From a virus (Duplodnaviria > Heunggongvirae > Uroviricota > Caudoviricetes): 14,385 nucleotides of DNA. The notes under the pieces were generated by a model. The model was not told the origin of the DNA. It made no database searches and saw nothing but the letters and a program-made list of their open reading frames with translations. Where the stretch lies: IMG/VR virus record IMGVR_UViG_2718217884_000002, positions 1-14,385 of that record; one strand, given 5' to 3'. Below, in pieces: positions 1 through 7,313 of this stretch (within the stretch, counting starts at the first letter, position 1; the number at the start of each line of letters is the position of its first letter). Made by a program: the position numbers and the translations under genes.

Positions 1-201
1 TTACCCATTGGCGCGGCTTAAGAGCTTATTTTTGAATTCACAATGGTCACGATATAACCATCTTGCTCGCCCGTGGATAACTTTGGCTTTAGGCAGGTCT
101 CCGGACTTAATCCGGTCATAGATGAAGGTTTTACCGAAGCCAGTATCAGCCATGATGAATTTCAAATCAACCAGTGAATCAGGCTGTAGTTCGTGTTGCA
201 T
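1..201 (-). CDS. torI: TorI/Xis-type excisionase (recombination directionality factor), 66 aa, AlpA-like winged-helix DNA-binding protein
   Basis: Complete ORF: ATG at 201..199 with GGAG 9 nt upstream, TAA at 3..1. Protein MQHELQPDSLVDLKFIMADTGFGKTFIYDRIKSG... has the Xis/AlpA HTH pattern and is recalled as matching the 66-aa TorI excisionase of KplE1/CPS-53 (memory, not searched). Sits at the opposite end of the element from the integrase. Confidence 0.6.
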   Translation of the reverse strand: MQHELQPDSLVDLKFIMADTGFGKTFIYDRIKSGDLPKAKVIHGRARWLYRDHCEFKNKLLSRANG

Positions 202-246
202 GAGTGCTATCTCCGAATAGGGAATCGAACCTGCAAATCAGGCAAT

Positions 247-268
247 AAAAAACCGCCATCAGGCGGCT
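247..268 (-). terminator. Short hairpin with U-run on the minus strand, between the Zn-ribbon gene and the excisionase
   Basis: CCGCC (253..257) / GGCGG (262..266) with a 4-nt loop; on the minus strand the stem is followed by TTTTTTATT (reverse complement of 243..252). Stem is only 5 bp, so it may be an attenuator rather than a full terminator. Confidence 0.35.
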
Positions 269-347
269 TGGTGTTCTTTCAGTTCTTCAATTCGAATATT
301 GGTTACATTGTTTTCATATATGAATAAATAAATTAGCTTTTTTCGTT

Positions 348-356
348 GCCTTCGCG
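348..356. repeat. Left copy of 9-bp target-site duplication GCCTTCGCG flanking IS1 copy A
   Basis: Identical 9-mer at 348..356 and 1111..1119, directly abutting the IS1 termini. Confidence 0.85.
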
Positions 357-371
357 GGTAATGACTCCAAC

Positions 372-861
372 TTATTGATAGTGTTTTATGTTCAGATAAT
401 GCCCGATGACTTTGTCATGCAGCTCCACCGATTTTGAGAACGACAGCGACTTCCGTCCCAGCCGTGCCAGGTGCTGCCTCAGATTCAGGTTATGCCGCTC
501 AATTCGCTGCGTATATCGCTTGCTGATTACGTGCAGCTTTCCCTTCAGGCGGGATTCATACAGCGGCCAGCCATCACCACGTCAAAGGGTGACAGCAGGC
601 TCATAAGACGCCCCAGCGTCGCCATAGTGCGTTCCCGAATACGTGCGCAACAACCGTCTTCCGGAGCCTGTCATACGCGTAAAACAGCCAGCGCTGGCGC
701 GATTTAGCCCCGACATAGCCCCACTGTTCGTCCATTTCCGCGCAGACGATGACGTCACTGCCCGGCTGTATGCGCGAGGTTACCGACTGCGGCCTGAGTT
801 TTTTAAGTGACGTAAAATCGTGTTGAGGCCAACGCCCATAATGCGGGCTGTTGCCCGGCAT
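372..861 (-). pseudogene. insB: insB of IS1 copy A, disrupted by a 13-bp and a 1-bp deletion
   Basis: The ORF track shows only an 86-aa N-terminal InsB fragment (601..861) beginning [21 protein letters not shown]...; the copy-B equivalent is an intact 167-aa ORF. Alignment of the two copies in this window shows the missing bases. Confidence 0.8.
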
Positions 862-1055
862 CCAACGCCATTCATGGCCATATCAATGATTTTCTGGTGC
901 GTACCGGGTTGAGAAGCGGTGTAAGTGAACTGCAGTTGCCATGTTTTACGGCAGTGAGAGCAGAGATAGCGCTGATGTCCGGCGGTGCTTTTGCCGTTAC
1001 GCACCACCCCGTCAGTAGCTGAACAGGAGGGACAGCTGATAGAAACAGAAGCCAC
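780..1055 (-). CDS. insA: IS1 InsA (91 aa), intact
   Basis: 91-aa [46 protein letters not shown]... with the zinc-finger and HTH typical of IS1 InsA, inside the IS1 boundaries. Confidence 0.9.
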
Positions 1056-1083
1056 TGGAGCACCTCAAAAACACCATCATACA

Positions 1084-1275
1084 CTAAATCAGTAAGTTGG
1101 CAGCATCACCGCCTTCGCGTTCTTTATTAATTTTGACAAAATCGTTTTTACCACGCTCTCCAAATGCGTCTTTAGAGTCGTTGTATCCGCAATCGCAGCA
1201 CACATAATCATCAGACCATCCACGCATTGTTTTTTCTTTTGCAATATTTCCAGAACCGCATTTTGGACAAGACAT
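1084..1275 (-). CDS. Small zinc-ribbon protein (CPKCG...CCDCGY), C-terminus rewritten by the IS1 insertion
   Basis: ATG at 1275..1273 preceded by GGAGG 7 nt upstream; the 11 N-terminal residues in the ORF track are read-through of the RBS region. Two Cys pairs (CPKC, CDCG). The frame now runs 8 codons into IS1 (GDAANLLI, stop at 1084). Joining the flanks across the duplication gives a native end ...KEREGNEKS with stop at 335..333. Confidence 0.5.
   Translation of the reverse strand: MSCPKCGSGNIAKEKTMRGWSDDYVCCDCGYNDSKDAFGERGKNDFVKINKEREGGDAANLLI
1111..1119. repeat. Right copy of 9-bp target-site duplication GCCTTCGCG flanking IS1 copy A
   Basis: Identical to 348..356. Confidence 0.85.
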
Positions 1276-1371
1276 ATCACTACCTCCAAAGCATGAGTGA
1301 GATGACAACGTAACATTGATTGGAGATTAACAATAGATTGCTGATGTAAAAGATATGTATAAGCTTCGCTT

Positions 1372-2022
1372 TCAAAGTGGAGGCTCTGGTAGCGGCATCC
1401 AGTGAGTTACGTCATCCAAGATATTTCCTGATAAATACGTGAAAGCTCTATATTTTTTGTAATCAATTGGATTTACAACCCAGTTCCAATATGCGGCCAC
1501 GATTTCACCTTGACTAAATGCCAGTAACATTTTGGTGTCTTCCGGCATTCGCTCACTACAGCCAATCCAACCATCAGGAGTAACCGGAGAGTTGCCACCG
1601 GGAATATTTTCCGGAATATTTTGTTGTGCGTTTTGTGGTTGTTCGGATTTACCCTGAAGCATGGCAGCACGGCAGGCGTTCCAGCCAGCTGTTCGCCCAA
1701 GCGCGTAAACTTCAGATGGCTCAAGATAATCAATGTCCTGCCCGTCCTCATCGTCGTTCTCAGGTAATGCAGCAGGTACTACCGGTACTGGCGGGGCGGC
1801 GTAGACTTCAATTGTCCCATTATCAATAGGCCACTCCCCATCCTTGATGTAGTCACTTGTGCCGTCAACTTGCTGTTCAGCAATGTGGAATGCACCAACT
1901 GGCTCTGCCTCAAGCGAGGCCAGTGCAATTCGTGCCAGTTCCATTTGTTCGCCACGGGTAAGCCCGTTTTCAAGCGGGGATTTAATGAACAATTCGATAC
2001 GTTCTTTAGTGATAGTGCTCAT
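1372..2022 (-). CDS. DUF551-family prophage protein (about 216 aa)
   Basis: Start ATG 2022..2020 with AGGAGA upstream, 1 nt after the stop of the preceding gene. C-terminal region (...DGWIGCSERMPEDTKMLLAF...THWMPLPEPPL) resembles the DUF551 domain common in enterobacterial prophage early regions (recall). Confidence 0.55.
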   Translation of the reverse strand: MSTITKERIELFIKSPLENGLTRGEQMELARIALASLEAEPVGAFHIAEQQVDGTSDYIKDGEWPIDNGTIEVYAAPPVPVVPAALPENDDEDGQDIDYLEPSEVYALGRTAGWNACRAAMLQGKSEQPQNAQQNIPENIPGGNSPVTPDGWIGCSERMPEDTKMLLAFSQGEIVAAYWNWVVNPIDYKKYRAFTYLSGNILDDVTHWMPLPEPPL

Positions 2023-2023
2023 A

Positions 2024-2746
2024 TCACTCTCCTTTGATGCGAATGCCAGCGGCGCGGATAGATTTCCATTGTTTCCACATTCGGTTGAAGTCTGTGCCTG
2101 ATAAGGTTGCGTTACGGTATCCAGTTTCGGTGCGCAATCCTTCAAGCGTCGATTTGGAGATACAAATTGAATGCATTACCCATGATTCAAACAAATCACG
2201 CTCACGGGCTTCGCAACTTTGCTTACTCATCTCTTCGATACGTTCAGCCATCGCAGCACACTCTTCAAAGTTGCTTAATGCTTTTCGCTCCCATTCGGCG
2301 CATTGTTTTTCCAGTTCTGCAATGCGCTTACTTCCATCCGCGATTACTCCCTCGTAATATTCACGCTGCTCGTTGAGTTTTGATTTTGCTGCTTCAAGCT
2401 CAACGCGCAGCTTCCCTACCGTTAACACAATCTCCTCGTTCTCCTGGTCGCGGCGTTTGATGTATTGCTGGTTTCTTTCCAGCTCATCCAGCAGCGCCAA
2501 GACGGTAGCGGGATTGGCTGCGGCGATGAATTCAGCATTGGCCTGCTGTTCCATTTGGAAATCTTCATCGAAACCGCTTTCTGGATGCGCTCCTTCAATT
2601 CTGCAAATGGGAAGATATCCAACAACTTCACGATGAATTAGTGCATCACCAGCATCAAATCTCTCCTCTCCATATTCGAGCGACCACACACCACACGTTG
2701 CTTTTTCTGCCGCTTCACGCAGTGCCTGATAGTCAATCTTGTTCAT
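2024..2746 (-). CDS. Ead/Ea22-like early-left protein (240 aa), coiled-coil rich
   Basis: ATG 2746 with GGTGA 6 nt upstream; N-terminus MNKIDYQALREAAEKATCG... and central heptad-rich region resemble the Ea22-like family of lambdoid prophages (recall). Confidence 0.55.
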   Translation of the reverse strand: MNKIDYQALREAAEKATCGVWSLEYGEERFDAGDALIHREVVGYLPICRIEGAHPESGFDEDFQMEQQANAEFIAAANPATVLALLDELERNQQYIKRRDQENEEIVLTVGKLRVELEAAKSKLNEQREYYEGVIADGSKRIAELEKQCAEWERKALSNFEECAAMAERIEEMSKQSCEARERDLFESWVMHSICISKSTLEGLRTETGYRNATLSGTDFNRMWKQWKSIRAAGIRIKGE

Positions 2747-2747
2747 G

Positions 2748-3047
2748 TCACATCACCCTGAAGCCGTTGCATTTACGTAAGAAATCGCAGATATAGCCCT
2801 TCATTTTTTCATGCCAATCTCGATCATTCCCATTGCACCACCCATCAGGTGGAGTCCAGTTTTCTATCAGAGCAGCCATTTTCTTTGCTTTCGCCGGAGT
2901 AGCTGTTGCGGTATCGCAGTAATGACGAGTGTCAACAAACTTATCCATGCCATCGATATCAAGTACGCAAAACCATGTGTGATTCGGAATTCCTACAGGT
3001 GGTATTTGTTGCCCACGTCGGCGTTTATCAATGAGATATACACTCAC
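2748..3047 (-). CDS. Hypothetical early-left protein (99 aa)
   Basis: GTG start at 3047 with a strong AAGGAGG 6 nt upstream; start overlaps the stop of the upstream gene (GTGA). No family recognised. Confidence 0.5.
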   Translation of the reverse strand: MSVYLIDKRRRGQQIPPVGIPNHTWFCVLDIDGMDKFVDTRHYCDTATATPAKAKKMAALIENWTPPDGWCNGNDRDWHEKMKGYICDFLRKCNGFRVM

Positions 3048-3493
3048 TGGTTACCTCCTTTGCGAAGCTCTGCGGCGAACTCGTTAAGTGATATGTAGCA
3101 ATCTCCAAATGTTAACGAACCGCTCGACTGCATATGCTCCATAGCCATCTCCACGCCCTGCGCCCGTACTTCAGCCAGGAAAGCATCGGTGGCTGGGGTT
3201 TCAGTAACATCATCTTCCCATTCGCTAAACTCCTCACGACAAAAGTCATTAAATTCCTTCTCAGATTGCTTAAGCGAGGTATTTTCAGCAGCCATCTTCG
3301 CGCATTTAGCCTCAAGGTTATCAATCGTGATTCCAGCAGAACGACACTCCCGCAACGCCGTTTCTAGTTTTGATTCAAGTTCACCGAACTTACGCACCAG
3401 ATATTCAGCGTTTGTTTCGTTAACCTTTAAATCTCGGGGGATGCATTTACCTTTCAGAAAACCATCCATCTCAATTAGTGACATTTGTTTCAT
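3044..3493 (-). CDS. Hypothetical coiled-coil early-left protein (149 aa from [12 protein letters not shown]...)
   Basis: ATG 3493 with GGAG 9 nt upstream, overlapping the stop of the upstream small ORF (ATGA). No family recognised. Confidence 0.5.
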
Positions 3494-3654
3494 TTCTTCC
3501 CACTCCGCCACATTGCATTCAGATATTTGTTGTCATTAACAGAGCCGAAACTATTTCTCTTAAGCAATTCCTCTCTCGATGGCATTGGCTTTACGCGTTG
3601 GCGAATAATCATTTCTGCCGGAAGAATGCCGGGATTGTATGCAAGTCCTCTCAT
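3490..3654 (-). CDS. Small hypothetical protein (54 aa, [32 protein letters not shown]...)
   Basis: ATG 3654 with GAGGA 7 nt upstream; translationally coupled to neighbours on both sides. The longer 104-aa ORF in the track is probably an unsupported N-terminal extension. Confidence 0.4.
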
Positions 3655-3664
3655 GGTAAATTCC

Positions 3665-3958
3665 TCAGTCATTACTGATAGCGCCATAGCGTGAGCGGTA
3701 ATTACGCAGGCGCGGGTCAATTTCAGGGAAGTGGGTATATGTGGCTTTGCGGAATGGTCGGATTGATATCTGGTAAATTCGCTCGCGTTCTTCTTTCTCT
3801 GCAAGCCATATACAATAGCGAAATTCCTTTTCCTCTTTCGTTTCCTGCGGTAGAGACATTATTCGATCGTAGTTTTTTCTGAATTTATCCAGCACCTCCG
3901 ATACGGAATTGCCGGAACAGCGGCGCGGGTCATCCGCACCATACAGAGGCGCTGGCAT
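3665..3958 (-). CDS. Hypothetical early-left protein (97 aa)
   Basis: ATG 3958 with AAGGA 8 nt upstream; same strand and tight spacing as neighbours. No family recognised. Confidence 0.45.
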
Positions 3959-3981
3959 AATTAAATCCTTATTTTTCTAAA

Positions 3982-4365
3982 TCAGAATGGGATGGAATCG
4001 TCGTATACAGGATGATTTTGATGATTGCTACTTTGCTGCTGTTGGCTGTTTCCTGAAGTTGCAAATCCAATCTTTGCATTCAGTAATTCAAGAGTGATTG
4101 ATTGACCATTTTGCCCCTGATAAACATCAACCCTGATGTTTTCTCCGGTAATTTCCACAATTCCACCTTCAACAAGAACACTACGGTAGTAATCCGCTTG
4201 CGCTCCCGGCTTGGCAAATACAACGGCGCTGTAGTTTGTCCATTCTTTCTTTTTTGTCTGGCGATCGTAATACTGAACGCCAGCACGGATGTTGAATCCG
4301 ATATTTTCCCCGGCCTGAAACTCTCTTGCGGGCTTGTTTAGTCTTACAGTAATCGAATGTGCCAT
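3982..4365 (-). CDS. ssb: Phage single-stranded DNA-binding protein-like (127 aa) with acidic C-terminal tip ...YDDSIPF
   Basis: ATG 4365..4363 with AAGGAG 10 nt upstream, overlapping the upstream stop (TAATG). OB-fold-like core (KEWTNYSAVVFAKPG...LVEGGIVEITGE) followed by a Q/S-rich linker and a DDSIPF tail resembling the bacterial SSB C-terminal DDDIPF motif (established knowledge). Confidence 0.6.
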   Translation of the reverse strand: MAHSITVRLNKPAREFQAGENIGFNIRAGVQYYDRQTKKKEWTNYSAVVFAKPGAQADYYRSVLVEGGIVEITGENIRVDVYQGQNGQSITLELLNAKIGFATSGNSQQQQSSNHQNHPVYDDSIPF

Positions 4366-4577
4366 TAAGCAGCCGCTCCTTCTAATTCGTCTCGTCTGAT
4401 GTTGTAAACGTCCTGCGCTTTGTGCTGCTCCGGTGTGCCTTCGAGCATCTTCCACGCTTTGGCGAACGCCTGTTTAAGCTCTTCCACGGTGTTTTTCTGC
4501 AATGCTGCGTCAGTGAATGCTTTTAGAACCTGTTCTGATGCGGCTAACTTTGAAGCAAGGCTCGACACCTTTAAAGC
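4365..4577 (-). pseudogene. 5'-truncated remnant of an early-left gene, possibly the C-terminus of a recombinase that normally precedes ssb
   Basis: Frame opens only 3 codons above a GTG at 4568 with no usable RBS; the remnant ends TAA overlapping the ssb ATG. Sits exactly at the predicted deletion junction. Recombinase identity is inference from typical phage gene order only. Confidence 0.3.
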
Positions 4578-4578
4578 T

Positions 4579-4845
4579 CAAACATTCCTTCCTATGGTGC
4601 AGTCCCTGAAGGGTATGGGCGCTCTTTCAGATGCTGAGGGTAAAAAACTATCCGATGCGGTTGGTGCCCTAAGTCCCAAAATGAGTGAAAAGGCTTTTCG
4701 TGACTCTATCGGAAAGATTAGAAATCAGCTTGAAAGCAAGTTGAGCACTGTTAAAAAACAGTTTGATTATCAGGAGCCGGTGCAGAATATGCCAGGGCAA
4801 CAATCTACTACTGGCAGTAACTTTTCTTCACTATGGGGTGATTAA
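4579..4845 (+). pseudogene. 5'-truncated 3' remnant of a virion ejection (DNA-transfer) protein gene
   Basis: Protein-like reading (...FKAQTFLPMVQSLKGMGALSDAEGKKLSDAVGALSPK...) with no plausible start or RBS; its stop TAA overlaps the next ATG (TAATG at 4843..4847). Ejection-protein assignment is from position upstream of the tailspike only. Confidence 0.3.
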
Positions 4846-5744
4846 TGGCTAAAGCATGGAAAGATGTTATCGCCTCTCCACAGTATCAGGCGTTAGCACC
4901 AGAACAAAAAGCGCAGGCTCAGGAGCAATACTTCAATGAAGTCGTGGCCCCGCAAGCCGGAGAAAATGCAGAGCAGGCTAAGCAAGCTTTCTATGCTGCC
5001 TATCCATTGCCATCTGTGCAGCAAGTGGAGACACAGCAACCAGTAGCACAGCAACAACCACAGCAAAGTGGATTTATGTCTGATCTTGGCGAAGCAGTAA
5101 AAGAGACTGGCCGCGGACTGGTGCAGGCTGGCGTGAACGTGGCAAACATACCTGCATCAGTTGCAGATGCTGTAACAAGCGCGGCGGCTTGGGCTGGCGG
5201 TAAACTCGGAATTGGCGATGGGACATATCACCCTGCGCCACGAGTAACAACGCAGGGATTAGAGCAGGACTTTGGCCTTCAGCAAGGCGCGCTGACTCCA
5301 CAAACTACAGAGGGAAGGGTATTTGCTGAGGCATTGCCTTACCTCACTCCTGCTGGCATTGAGAGAGCGGCAACACAGGCACCAACACTCGCTGGTAGAA
5401 TCGCTCAGGGTGCAACTCGCCTTCTCGCTGAAAACGCAGTCGGGTCACTTGCTGCAAATAGTGCGAAAGATGATGCGGAAGCACTCGCTACCGATTTAGG
5501 CGTTGGCGTTCTGGCTGGCGGCGCTATTAACGCTGCCGGACGTGGATTAGGCGCTGCTTATCGTGGCGTTCGTGGTGCTATTGCACCAGAAGCGCAGCAA
5601 GCTATCAGATTTGCAGAGCGTGAAGGAGTGCCTCTGCACACCACAGACCTGTTACAGCCTACTTCCCGCGTCGGAAAAATGGCGCAAACGACAGCAGAAA
5701 ATATCCCCCTGGCTGGCACAAGCGGAATGAGAGCAACGCAATAG
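4845..5744 (+). CDS. Ejection/internal virion protein-like, A/Q/G-rich (299 aa)
   Basis: ATG 4845 coupled to the upstream remnant. Low-complexity A/Q/G-rich composition and location two genes upstream of a P22-type tailspike fit the gp20/gp16-like ejection proteins of P22-like phages (synteny inference). Ends at TAG 5742..5744, in frame with the next ORF. Confidence 0.45.
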   Translation: MAKAWKDVIASPQYQALAPEQKAQAQEQYFNEVVAPQAGENAEQAKQAFYAAYPLPSVQQVETQQPVAQQQPQQSGFMSDLGEAVKETGRGLVQAGVNVANIPASVADAVTSAAAWAGGKLGIGDGTYHPAPRVTTQGLEQDFGLQQGALTPQTTEGRVFAEALPYLTPAGIERAATQAPTLAGRIAQGATRLLAENAVGSLAANSAKDDAEALATDLGVGVLAGGAINAAGRGLGAAYRGVRGAIAPEAQQAIRFAEREGVPLHTTDLLQPTSRVGKMAQTTAENIPLAGTSGMRATQ

Positions 5745-5759
5745 GAAGCGAGAAGCCAG

Positions 5760-6842
5760 TTGGTTCAGAGATTTGCTGATAAATTCGGTGAGTATGATCC
5801 AGCGGTTGTTATTGACAGCCTTAAAGCGAAAACATCAGGAATTCGTCGCGCTGCAGGAAATCGACTGGAGCAGGTTCAGAATGCTATGGCGGGAATAAAC
5901 ATTCAGCCTGCAAGAGCAATTCAGCAGATTGATACAGAAATATCTAACCTGCAGAAGCTTGGTAAGGTTGCTGATAACGAGACTATTTCAAAACTTCAGT
6001 CCTATCGTGATGAGCTTGTTCGCAATGCTGGTCCTGATGGTCCGGTAAATCTGGATTTGAAGCAATTAAGCGATCTGCGCAGCCAGTTCAGAATGGACGT
6101 GAAGGGGGAGCGACCAGTGTTACCAAACCGTTCCGATGCTGCCATTCAGCGCGTTTACAAGGCAATGACCGACGATATCAATGGTGCCATTGGTCAGAAT
6201 CTTGGCAACGATACTCTCCGTAAATATCAGCAGGCCAATGCCGTCTACGCTGACGAAGCGGCGAAACTAAAGAATACCAGGCTGAAGAATGTTCTCATGA
6301 AAGGCGACCTGACGCCGGAAGTTGTCAACAACATGCTATTCAGCAAGAACAAATCGGAAATTAAGACTCTCTATAACTCAGTTGGTCGTGTTGGCAGGGC
6401 GCAAATGCGCAATGGCATCATTGGAAAGGCGATGGAGAAATCAGGTGGTTCCCCTGACCAGTTCCTTCGGCAGCTTAACATCCTGCAAAACCAGACTGGC
6501 ATCACATTTAAAGGTCAGGAAGCCGCTTATCTGAAAGGATTGAAAAACTACCTGCAATCCACGCAGCAGGCTGCAAAAGCGGCAGTAACAACACCCACAG
6601 GGCAGCAAACTATCCCGTTCATTATTGGGTATGGGACGGCAATGAACCCGGCGACAACTGGCGCAGCAGTAAGCTACGGACTTCTTACTCGCGCCTATGA
6701 GAGCGAGCCATTCAGAAATGCAATGCTCCGAATGGCAAACACCCCACGCGGATCAACAGCGTTCGAGAAAGCCATGCAGCAGGCACAAAAGGCCATTAAC
6801 GCCCTGACTCAGGGGGCTAAGTCTGATGCGCTGTCAGAATAG
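5760..6842 (+). CDS. Ejection/internal virion protein-like (360 aa), possibly the downstream part of one gene interrupted by an amber codon
   Basis: Same reading frame as 4845..5744, separated by a single TAG and 5 codons. The only start is TTG at 5760 with a poorly spaced GGAAG; the first in-frame ATG is about 40 codons in. Confidence 0.4.
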   Translation: MVQRFADKFGEYDPAVVIDSLKAKTSGIRRAAGNRLEQVQNAMAGINIQPARAIQQIDTEISNLQKLGKVADNETISKLQSYRDELVRNAGPDGPVNLDLKQLSDLRSQFRMDVKGERPVLPNRSDAAIQRVYKAMTDDINGAIGQNLGNDTLRKYQQANAVYADEAAKLKNTRLKNVLMKGDLTPEVVNNMLFSKNKSEIKTLYNSVGRVGRAQMRNGIIGKAMEKSGGSPDQFLRQLNILQNQTGITFKGQEAAYLKGLKNYLQSTQQAAKAAVTTPTGQQTIPFIIGYGTAMNPATTGAAVSYGLLTRAYESEPFRNAMLRMANTPRGSTAFEKAMQQAQKAINALTQGAKSDALSE

Positions 6843-6931
6843 CTTCGCAAACACCAGGAACGTGCAAAAACCAAATATGTAGAACGCAATATTCAGCATA
6901 TCTCTTTGCATAAATCCTCCGTAATGGATGG

Positions 6932-7192
6932 TTATCTGCTGTCTTTTTTATATAGCTTCTTGAGCGTATCAAAGACAATTTTCTTAACCATATCAGATTG
7001 TTGTTCTGCCATACGCTCTGCATCGTCAATGTAAACTGATGCAGAGCTTTGTTTAGCCAACGATTCTTCAATCGCTGCAATTATCTCTGAGTTCAGCGAT
7101 CTGTTATTCATCTTCGCACGCTGCTTAATTTTCGCGTGGAGTTCATGCGGAAGTCTCAAGTGAAACTGCGCCTCGTCGTATTTGCTGTACAT
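6932..7192 (-). CDS. mnt: Mnt-like ribbon-helix-helix repressor (Arc/MetJ family), 86 aa
   Basis: ATG 7192 with GGTGAGG upstream. ...YDEAQFHLRLPHELHAKIKQRAKMNNRSLNSEIIAAIEESL...DDAERMAEQQSDMVKKIVFDTLKKLYKK aligns along its length with phage P22 Mnt as recalled (FNFRMP...NGRSMNSE...NDAERLADEQSELVKKMVFDTLKDLYKK). Divergent from the tailspike, as in the P22 immI region. Confidence 0.7.
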   Translation of the reverse strand: MYSKYDEAQFHLRLPHELHAKIKQRAKMNNRSLNSEIIAAIEESLAKQSSASVYIDDAERMAEQQSDMVKKIVFDTLKKLYKKDSR

Positions 7193-7265
7193 CCTTGATG
7201 CCTCACCAGTTGGGTGGAATGGCATCGTAACCTACTGGATAAATACTCAATAGTACCATTTCGGT

Positions 7266-7296
7266 ATGCAATCACATCATGGTTGCATCATATCAT
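7266..7296. promoter_or_regulatory. Candidate operator/promoter: palindrome ATGCAA-N11-TTGCAT overlapping direct repeats ATCACATCAT / ATCATATCAT, 18-48 bp upstream of the tailspike ATG
   Basis: ATGCAA 7266..7271 and TTGCAT 7283..7288; ATCACATCAT 7271..7280 and ATCATATCAT 7287..7296; TATCAT (7291..7296) is a possible -10. In the divergent mnt-tailspike intergenic region. Confidence 0.25.
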
Positions 7297-7313
7297 TCGT
7301 CTGGAGCAATGAA

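Follow-up and report, generated by a model that had tools for sequence, protein, structure and literature searches.

The stretch of DNA analysed here, 14,385 nucleotides in length and referred to below as the window, runs from the torI stop codon to the intS start codon, both genes lying on the minus strand, and comprises a whole prophage interior. The prophage is a decayed HK620/KplE1-type remnant at the argW-dsdC locus. A TorI-type RDF and IntS stand at opposite prophage ends, with torI on the dsdC side, as is characteristic of the KplE1/HK620 recombination module; the att sites fall beyond the ends of the window, and in L025 and L026, two contigs with the same remnant that are described below, torI is followed by dsdC-dsdX-dsdA. 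Because TorI is identical to its K-12 and HK620 counterparts and IntS is about 99% identical to K-12 IntS, the recombination module looks functional. K-12 KplE1/CPS-53 occupies the same chromosomal place next to dsdC and encodes the identical TorI, but it carries yfdT/ypdJ upstream of torI where the remnant carries eag.

Which parts of the prophage have survived? On the left there remain torI, eag, DUF551, Ead/Ea22, DUF7739, DUF2737, Abc2, a 127-aa gene and the last ~175 bp of erf. At a deletion junction the end of erf (minus strand) abuts the C-terminal third of gp20 (plus strand), and after it come the C-terminal part of gp20, gp16-type ejection genes, mnt, the tailspike and acyltransferase genes and, beyond the acyltransferase, a 320-aa ORF, an IS1 (copy B) and intS. 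Measured against HK620 and intact relatives, the remnant is without pL, nutL, N, cI, cro, cII and the replication, lysis and head genes. The erf/gp20 junction is absent from all 5,426 complete E. coli genomes searched, and no complete E. coli genome matches the window over 80% or more of its length. An ORF at 3982-4455 was considered as a truncated ssb on the basis of PHROG and was rejected, since intact prophages show the 127-aa gene to be complete and erf to be the truncated gene. The 320-aa ORF, which lies between the O-antigen acyltransferase gene and copy B, matches nothing in Pfam or PHROG at E<=0.001, and an Rfam scan of the window returned no family at threshold.

A second IS1, copy A, lies near the left end of the window, with insA and insB read in the direction of torI (Table 1). 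Its termini are GGTAATGACTCC, from position 357, and GGCAGCATCACC, up to position 1110, and each of them directly touches a copy of the 9-mer GCCTTCGCG, which occurs exactly twice in the window. The chance of a 9-mer match at two fixed positions is ~4e-6, and the identical 9-mers that the preliminary description of this DNA placed against both IS1 ends are indeed there. Copy A has the features of the IS1 family: a length of 768-14 bp, imperfect inverted repeats of ~23 bp (GGTRATG...), a 9-bp target duplication, and insA followed by insB' in the -1 frame with the A6C frameshift motif. Compared with IS1A of strain M217 (L004), 754 of 754 aligned bases are identical, with 0 substitutions, and the sole differences are one 13-bp and one 1-bp deletion, both in insB. 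The same loss of 13 + 1 bp had been proposed from a comparison with copy B, and it is found on alignment to copy B and to IS1A alike. InsB is identical to the full form for 76 aa, is then frameshifted and stops after 86, and the 13-bp deletion lies downstream of this premature stop. Because the 1-bp deletion halts the insB frame after 86 of 167 codons, copy A is without InsAB', as had also been proposed. Copy A thus shares with IS1A the inverted repeats, insA, the A6C motif and the 9-bp duplication, but, being short of 13 bp and 1 bp in insB and unable to encode InsAB', it is a family member and yet non-autonomous. Both of its ends are identical to those of IS1A, in agreement with the earlier claim that they are intact, and with such ends copy A could be mobile only given transposase from another IS1. 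The promoter-like site in IRL we take to be IS1's own insA promoter.

Table 1. Features of the window, with positions counted from its first nucleotide
Feature	Position	Strand	Remarks
torI (excisionase/RDF), 66 aa	1-201	minus	start at 201; protein identical to K-12 TorI and HK620 HkaC
'Promoter, phage integration' as annotated in HK620, identical sequence	208-246	minus	annotated cII-binding site 233-245
Intrinsic-terminator-like hairpin and U-tract	241-269	minus	between eag and torI; identical in HK620
Original eag stop	333-335	minus	
Left target-site duplication copy, GCCTTCGCG	348-356		also single in the empty site of L025 and in three E. coli genomes
IS1 copy A, 754 bp	357-1110	minus	
IRR, terminal inverted repeat, intact	357-379		both copy A ends match IS1A
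13-bp deletion site	between 572 and 576		flanked by ATC microhomology, exact position ambiguous
Truncated insB frame, 86 aa against 167 in full	601-861	minus	frame begins normally
1-bp (A) deletion site	between 634 and 635		shifts the insB frame
insA, 91 codons, GTG start, intact	780-1055	minus	no substitution relative to IS1A
Programmed -1 frameshift motif TTAAAAAAC (A6C), intact	798-806	minus	IS1 coordinate 305 counted from IRL
eag::IS1 chimeric ORF, 63 aa	1084-1275	minus	55 Eag residues (both CxxC pairs) and 8 IS1-encoded residues
IRL, terminal inverted repeat, intact	1088-1110		overlaps promoter-like site 1103->1076 on the minus strand
Right target-site duplication copy, GCCTTCGCG	1111-1119		abuts the IS end at 1110
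erf/gp20 deletion junction	near 4540 (region ~4365-4845)		
320-aa ORF	11268-12230	minus	
IS1 copy B, 768 bp	12239-13006		
intS	13228-14385	minus	

The gene interrupted by copy A encodes a small Zn-ribbon protein of PHROG 2945, annotated as 'Eag protein' in RefSeq and named hkaD in phage HK620. Its start is the ATG at 1275, with GGAGG upstream; a 75-aa ATG ORF at 1089-1316 was discarded as the Zn-ribbon gene, being in the wrong frame. When the IS and one 9-mer are removed in silico, the eag product is 59 aa long and ends in KEREGNEKS*, whereas the current eag::IS1 product ends in KEREGGDAANLLI*; the duplicated 9-mer codes for R-E-G. Eight IS1-encoded codons therefore substitute for the last four codons of eag, the number given in the preliminary description, and both CxxC pairs are unaffected. 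Eag acquires an altered C-terminal tail, and the consequences of the insertion for it are likely to be small. The exact chimeric product is present on 6 further public contigs (NCBI, Logan, ENA), and the 5 of these that were compared with the window are identical to it or nearly so; all of the compared contigs end within the IS, hence the deletions are not visible there.

The site before insertion can be recognised in several other sequences. The sequence restored by taking out the insertion is present with 100% identity over 329 bp in three complete E. coli genomes, and with 98.7% identity over 637 bp in HK620. When an adjacent gene was used for an exact-protein look-up, two IS-free versions of the remnant itself came up. 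One of them, L025 (Logan ERR7226512), has the same prophage remnant and no copy A, with the 9-mer present once; its identity to window positions 1-356 and 1111-12267 (11,513 bp of flank) is 100.000%, its two matching blocks overlap by precisely one 9-mer, and its contig stops 29 bp into IS1 copy B. The other, L026 (ENA ERZ24930417), is the same IS-free remnant with 5 mismatches. The single 9-mer in an isogenic empty site bears out the earlier reading of copy A as a clean IS1 insertion with a 9-bp duplication, and the comparison with related prophages without the insertion, which had been put forward as a check, yields IS-free counterparts (L025, L026, HK620 and the three E. coli genomes). Because the flank in L025 is 100% identical over 11.5 kb and holds one 9-mer, the insertion was not only clean but recent, and because the IS-free L025 already has both the large internal deletion and copy B, these two events precede copy A. 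The order of events, with the internal deletion and copy B first and copy A last, dates the decay steps of one argW prophage remnant.

Copy B, 11 kb from copy A between the 320-aa ORF and intS, is a full-length IS1 with both ORFs intact. It belongs to the same IS1 family and length class as copy A but to a divergent isoform: the two copies are ~91-92% identical, and copy B has 72 differences from IS1A and is 99.3% identical to copies widespread in E. coli. As a different isoform at this level of identity, copy B is a poor reference for copy A, and IS1A is the more informative one. Its presence in a strain without copy A makes copy B the older of the two. The 9-bp duplication of copy B, CGCTGTAGG, is a GC-rich 9-mer in AT-rich DNA, like the target of copy A.

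We favour, at a probability of about 0.85, the reading that copy A is an ordinary, recent insertion of an IS1A-type, non-autonomous element at a recurrent hot spot in eag, with little effect on torI. As the duplication and the empty site show, an IS1 transposed into the last codons of eag, the final gene before torI, duplicating GCCTTCGCG, and it did so recently, after the large internal deletion and the arrival of copy B. The inserted element still encodes InsA but no InsAB', so that it could move only if another IS1 supplied the transposase. For torI the effect is probably small, since an intrinsic terminator would already have cut it off from upstream transcription in a remnant without pL, N and cII. 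Both the element and the mechanism are of a known kind, an IS1A type with a classical 9-bp duplication in a familiar prophage family, and existing knowledge of IS1 and of KplE1-type excision control is left unchanged. Less routine are the two matched natural strains, of which one lacks the IS, the reuse of one 9-mer in prophages of three types, and the presence of two indels in a recent copy that is flawless elsewhere.

What might explain why an element without a single substitution relative to IS1A should have lost 14 bp from insB? The preliminary description regarded copy A as crippled after its insertion, a step that the analysis does not support: there are 2 indels in the IS and 0 changes in the 11.5-kb flank. 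If two changes were spread uniformly, the probability of both falling inside the IS would be ~0.004, the flanks being 15 times longer. A defective donor mobilised in trans, gene conversion or a sequencing error would account for this indel pattern roughly as well as in-place decay does. Copy A may already have been defective on insertion, mobilised in trans by another IS1, or its interior may later have been gene-converted from such a copy; the concentration of two separate indels in 754 bp as opposed to none in 11,513 bp, the 0 substitutions that mark the copy as young, and its intact ends are all consistent with this. On the other side, megablast found no other IS1 with the 13-bp deletion among ~75,000 IS1 places in 5,426 complete E. 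coli genomes, a 39-mer spanning the 13-bp deletion is absent from GTDB species representatives and JGI metagenomes, and the 86-aa truncated InsB has no exact record among 153 billion gene positions. Mobilisation in trans is also at odds with the preference of the IS1 transposase for acting in cis, and the stretch of insB concerned is prone to slippage, with independent 12-bp deletions in other strains. The failure of these searches to find another deleted copy and the slippage-prone insB stretch favour in-place decay, the uneven spread of the changes speaks against it, and an element that was defective on arrival is a serious contender at somewhat less than even odds. The part of insB equivalent to window positions 572-590 is a putative hot spot for small deletions in its own right: independent in-frame 12-bp deletions overlap the 13-bp site of copy A, both in an IS1 on the Survcare045 chromosome and on a set of plasmids of ~143 kb, and the 12-bp-deleted copies at L001:3001-3756 and L002:1501-2256 are annotated as intact frameshifted transposases.

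The target of copy A has been used more than once. A 100-bp probe over the left junction detected the same junction in three complete genomes (14EC033, EA13 and PEC414). In 14EC033 an intact 768-bp IS1, 8 substitutions from IS1A, is inserted at the same nucleotide and in the same orientation with both copies of GCCTTCGCG, and its host is a prophage next to sbcB with an integrase and excisionase that differ from those of the window. In EA13 and PEC414 the same left junction lies beside lambda-type xis/int at the bio-side attachment site, and the IS1 differs from IS1A at 2 positions. These insertions share with copy A the nucleotide, the orientation and the 9-mer, but they are intact 768-bp elements of other isoforms in prophages with other integrase/excisionase modules. 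Since other-isoform IS1 copies sit there in at least two other prophage types, the GCCTTCGCG site can be regarded as an IS1 hot spot, a reading based on 3 insertion events, two of them known from single assemblies only. An exact-match scan of GTDB representatives for the left junction found none, IMG/VR and JGI metagenomes gave no further instances of the junction, and a search for IS1 in the opposite orientation at the GCCTTCGCG site in eag also found none.

The target itself has a composition that would suit IS1. It is a 9-mer of 78% GC between flanks of 82% and 72% AT, and a GC-rich 9-mer in AT-rich surroundings is a known regional preference of IS1; target preference is therefore what we infer to be the cause of the recurrence. 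The repeated 9-bp site in eag would then be a small, concrete case of IS1 target preference in prophage DNA. An IHF site accompanies the IS1 hot spot of pBR322, and a corresponding site at the eag target was considered and dropped, the sole match to the IHF consensus WATCAANNNNTTR in the window (368-380) falling within IS1's own IRR.

Could the identical site instead reflect one ancestral insertion that spread by recombination between prophages, with no hot spot at all? Lambdoid prophages exchange modules freely, and the eag-terminator module is 97-99% identical across the contexts. However, the insertion in the window has its own isogenic empty site, the three IS copies are 0, 2 and 8 substitutions from IS1A, and in the other prophage contexts there are SNPs 13 and 31 bp from the IS ends. 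Because of the empty site and these nearby SNPs we regard the insertions as independent, and a shared ancestral insertion as unlikely.

The eag region gathers IS1 at several positions. Other copies lie in or near eag in GPEC206-621 (L014:2527-3456) and FDAARGOS_1277 (H126/H127), and one of these copies, of the divergent isoform, is inserted close to codon 3 of eag in a prophage integrated at thrW. In EA13 and PEC414 (L011/L012:16051-16818) the far side of the IS1 at eag is joined to corA, and a second IS1 lies 1.7 kb beyond, adjoining a phage tail gene; the corA junction indicates an IS1-mediated inversion or deletion.

Does copy A affect the excisionase gene that lies next to it? TorI supply is the switch for KplE1 excision, and TorI alone is sufficient to trigger it (PMC2951348). 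Copy A lies between the early-left genes and torI, as the preliminary description stated, and it was proposed there that the IS blocks read-through into the excisionase gene, a claim that the present analysis does not support. The DNA between the IS and torI is almost that of a functional phage. Over the 161 bp upstream of torI there is one base that differs from HK620, and it is within the 9-mer; the whole eag-terminator-promoter-torI stretch of HK620, which unlike the remnant is IS-free and a complete phage, is 98.7-100% identical to that of the remnant. Within this stretch, and in place before the insertion, is a predicted terminator read from 269 to 241, with an 8-pair stem (269-250) of -13 kcal/mol followed by UUUUUUAUU, although its z-score relative to shuffled sequences is only -2.1.

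Promoters in this region were also sought. By the preliminary description's own standard, a characterised promoter of the excisionase downstream of the IS would refute the proposal; a putative cII-dependent one is annotated there in the HK620 record, which goes part of the way towards such a refutation. The GenBank record of HK620 is the one source for this cII-dependent promoter at 208-246. A sigma-70 consensus scan gave no site at 208-246, as is expected of an activator-dependent promoter. The only minus-strand sigma-70-like site in positions 1-1500 is the one in IS1's IRL, and no hybrid outward promoter at the junction of IRR and flank passed the scan criteria.

In an intact phage, leftward transcription toward torI comes from pL with N antitermination, and N-modified polymerase is expected to read through IS polarity. 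The remnant is without pL, N, cI and cII, so there would be no phage-type early-left transcription for the IS to interrupt. IS1 is classically polar, and an extra 754 bp of polar IS1 could possibly add to the barrier before torI, in a minor way. Judged from the sequence, copy A probably does not silence torI any further.

It could nevertheless be argued that the IS insulates torI from early-left read-through, lowers TorI and thereby helps to lock the remnant in the chromosome. The IS1 is positioned exactly between the upstream minus-strand genes and torI, IS1 is polar, production of TorI by itself is enough for excision, and three different excisionase genes have an IS1 at this site upstream of them. 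Rho inhibition, moreover, is reported to release KplE1 in K-12 and to raise the copy number of its region (PMC11551753, citing Menouni et al. 2013), so that read-through into torI from unconventional promoters may occur in a related remnant. Yet a terminator identical to that of functional HK620 is predicted between eag and torI, and the annotated cII-dependent promoter is downstream of the IS. In the intact phage an N-modified polymerase would be expected to pass the IS in any case, and the remnant had lost pL, N and cII ahead of the insertion, the IS-free L025 having the same deletion. Public data hold the remnant without the IS just as well, which makes the IS unnecessary for retention, and target preference explains the recurrence more simply, eag always being the last gene before xis. 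We consider insulation of torI by copy A improbable. The matched natural strains with and without the IS upstream of torI are usable for a comparison of excision.

A little less probable again is that one or both deletions are an artefact of sequencing or assembly in a multi-copy repeat and that the real element is an intact IS1A. IS copies are difficult to assemble, one of the changes is a single missing A (TTCACC to TTCCC), and these changes are in no other record. However, a 13-bp loss with 3-bp microhomology is atypical of base-calling error, several independent assemblies contain genuine 12-bp deletions of a similar kind, and the remainder of copy A is base-perfect. Least credible of all is that IS1 is retained at the eag 3' end by selection, as a polar barrier before the excisionase and beyond what a hot spot would give; if true, IS1 would be a recurrent 'grounding' device in lambdoid/P22-like prophages with three different xis/int modules.

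The hairpin between eag and torI marks a boundary of another kind. Similarity to K-12 KplE1 ends at window position 251, in the U-tract at the foot of the hairpin (window 202-251 against L013 10761-10810). Because the shared sequence stops there, the hairpin marks a mosaic boundary, with the conserved recombination module on one side and the early-left genes, which vary, on the other.
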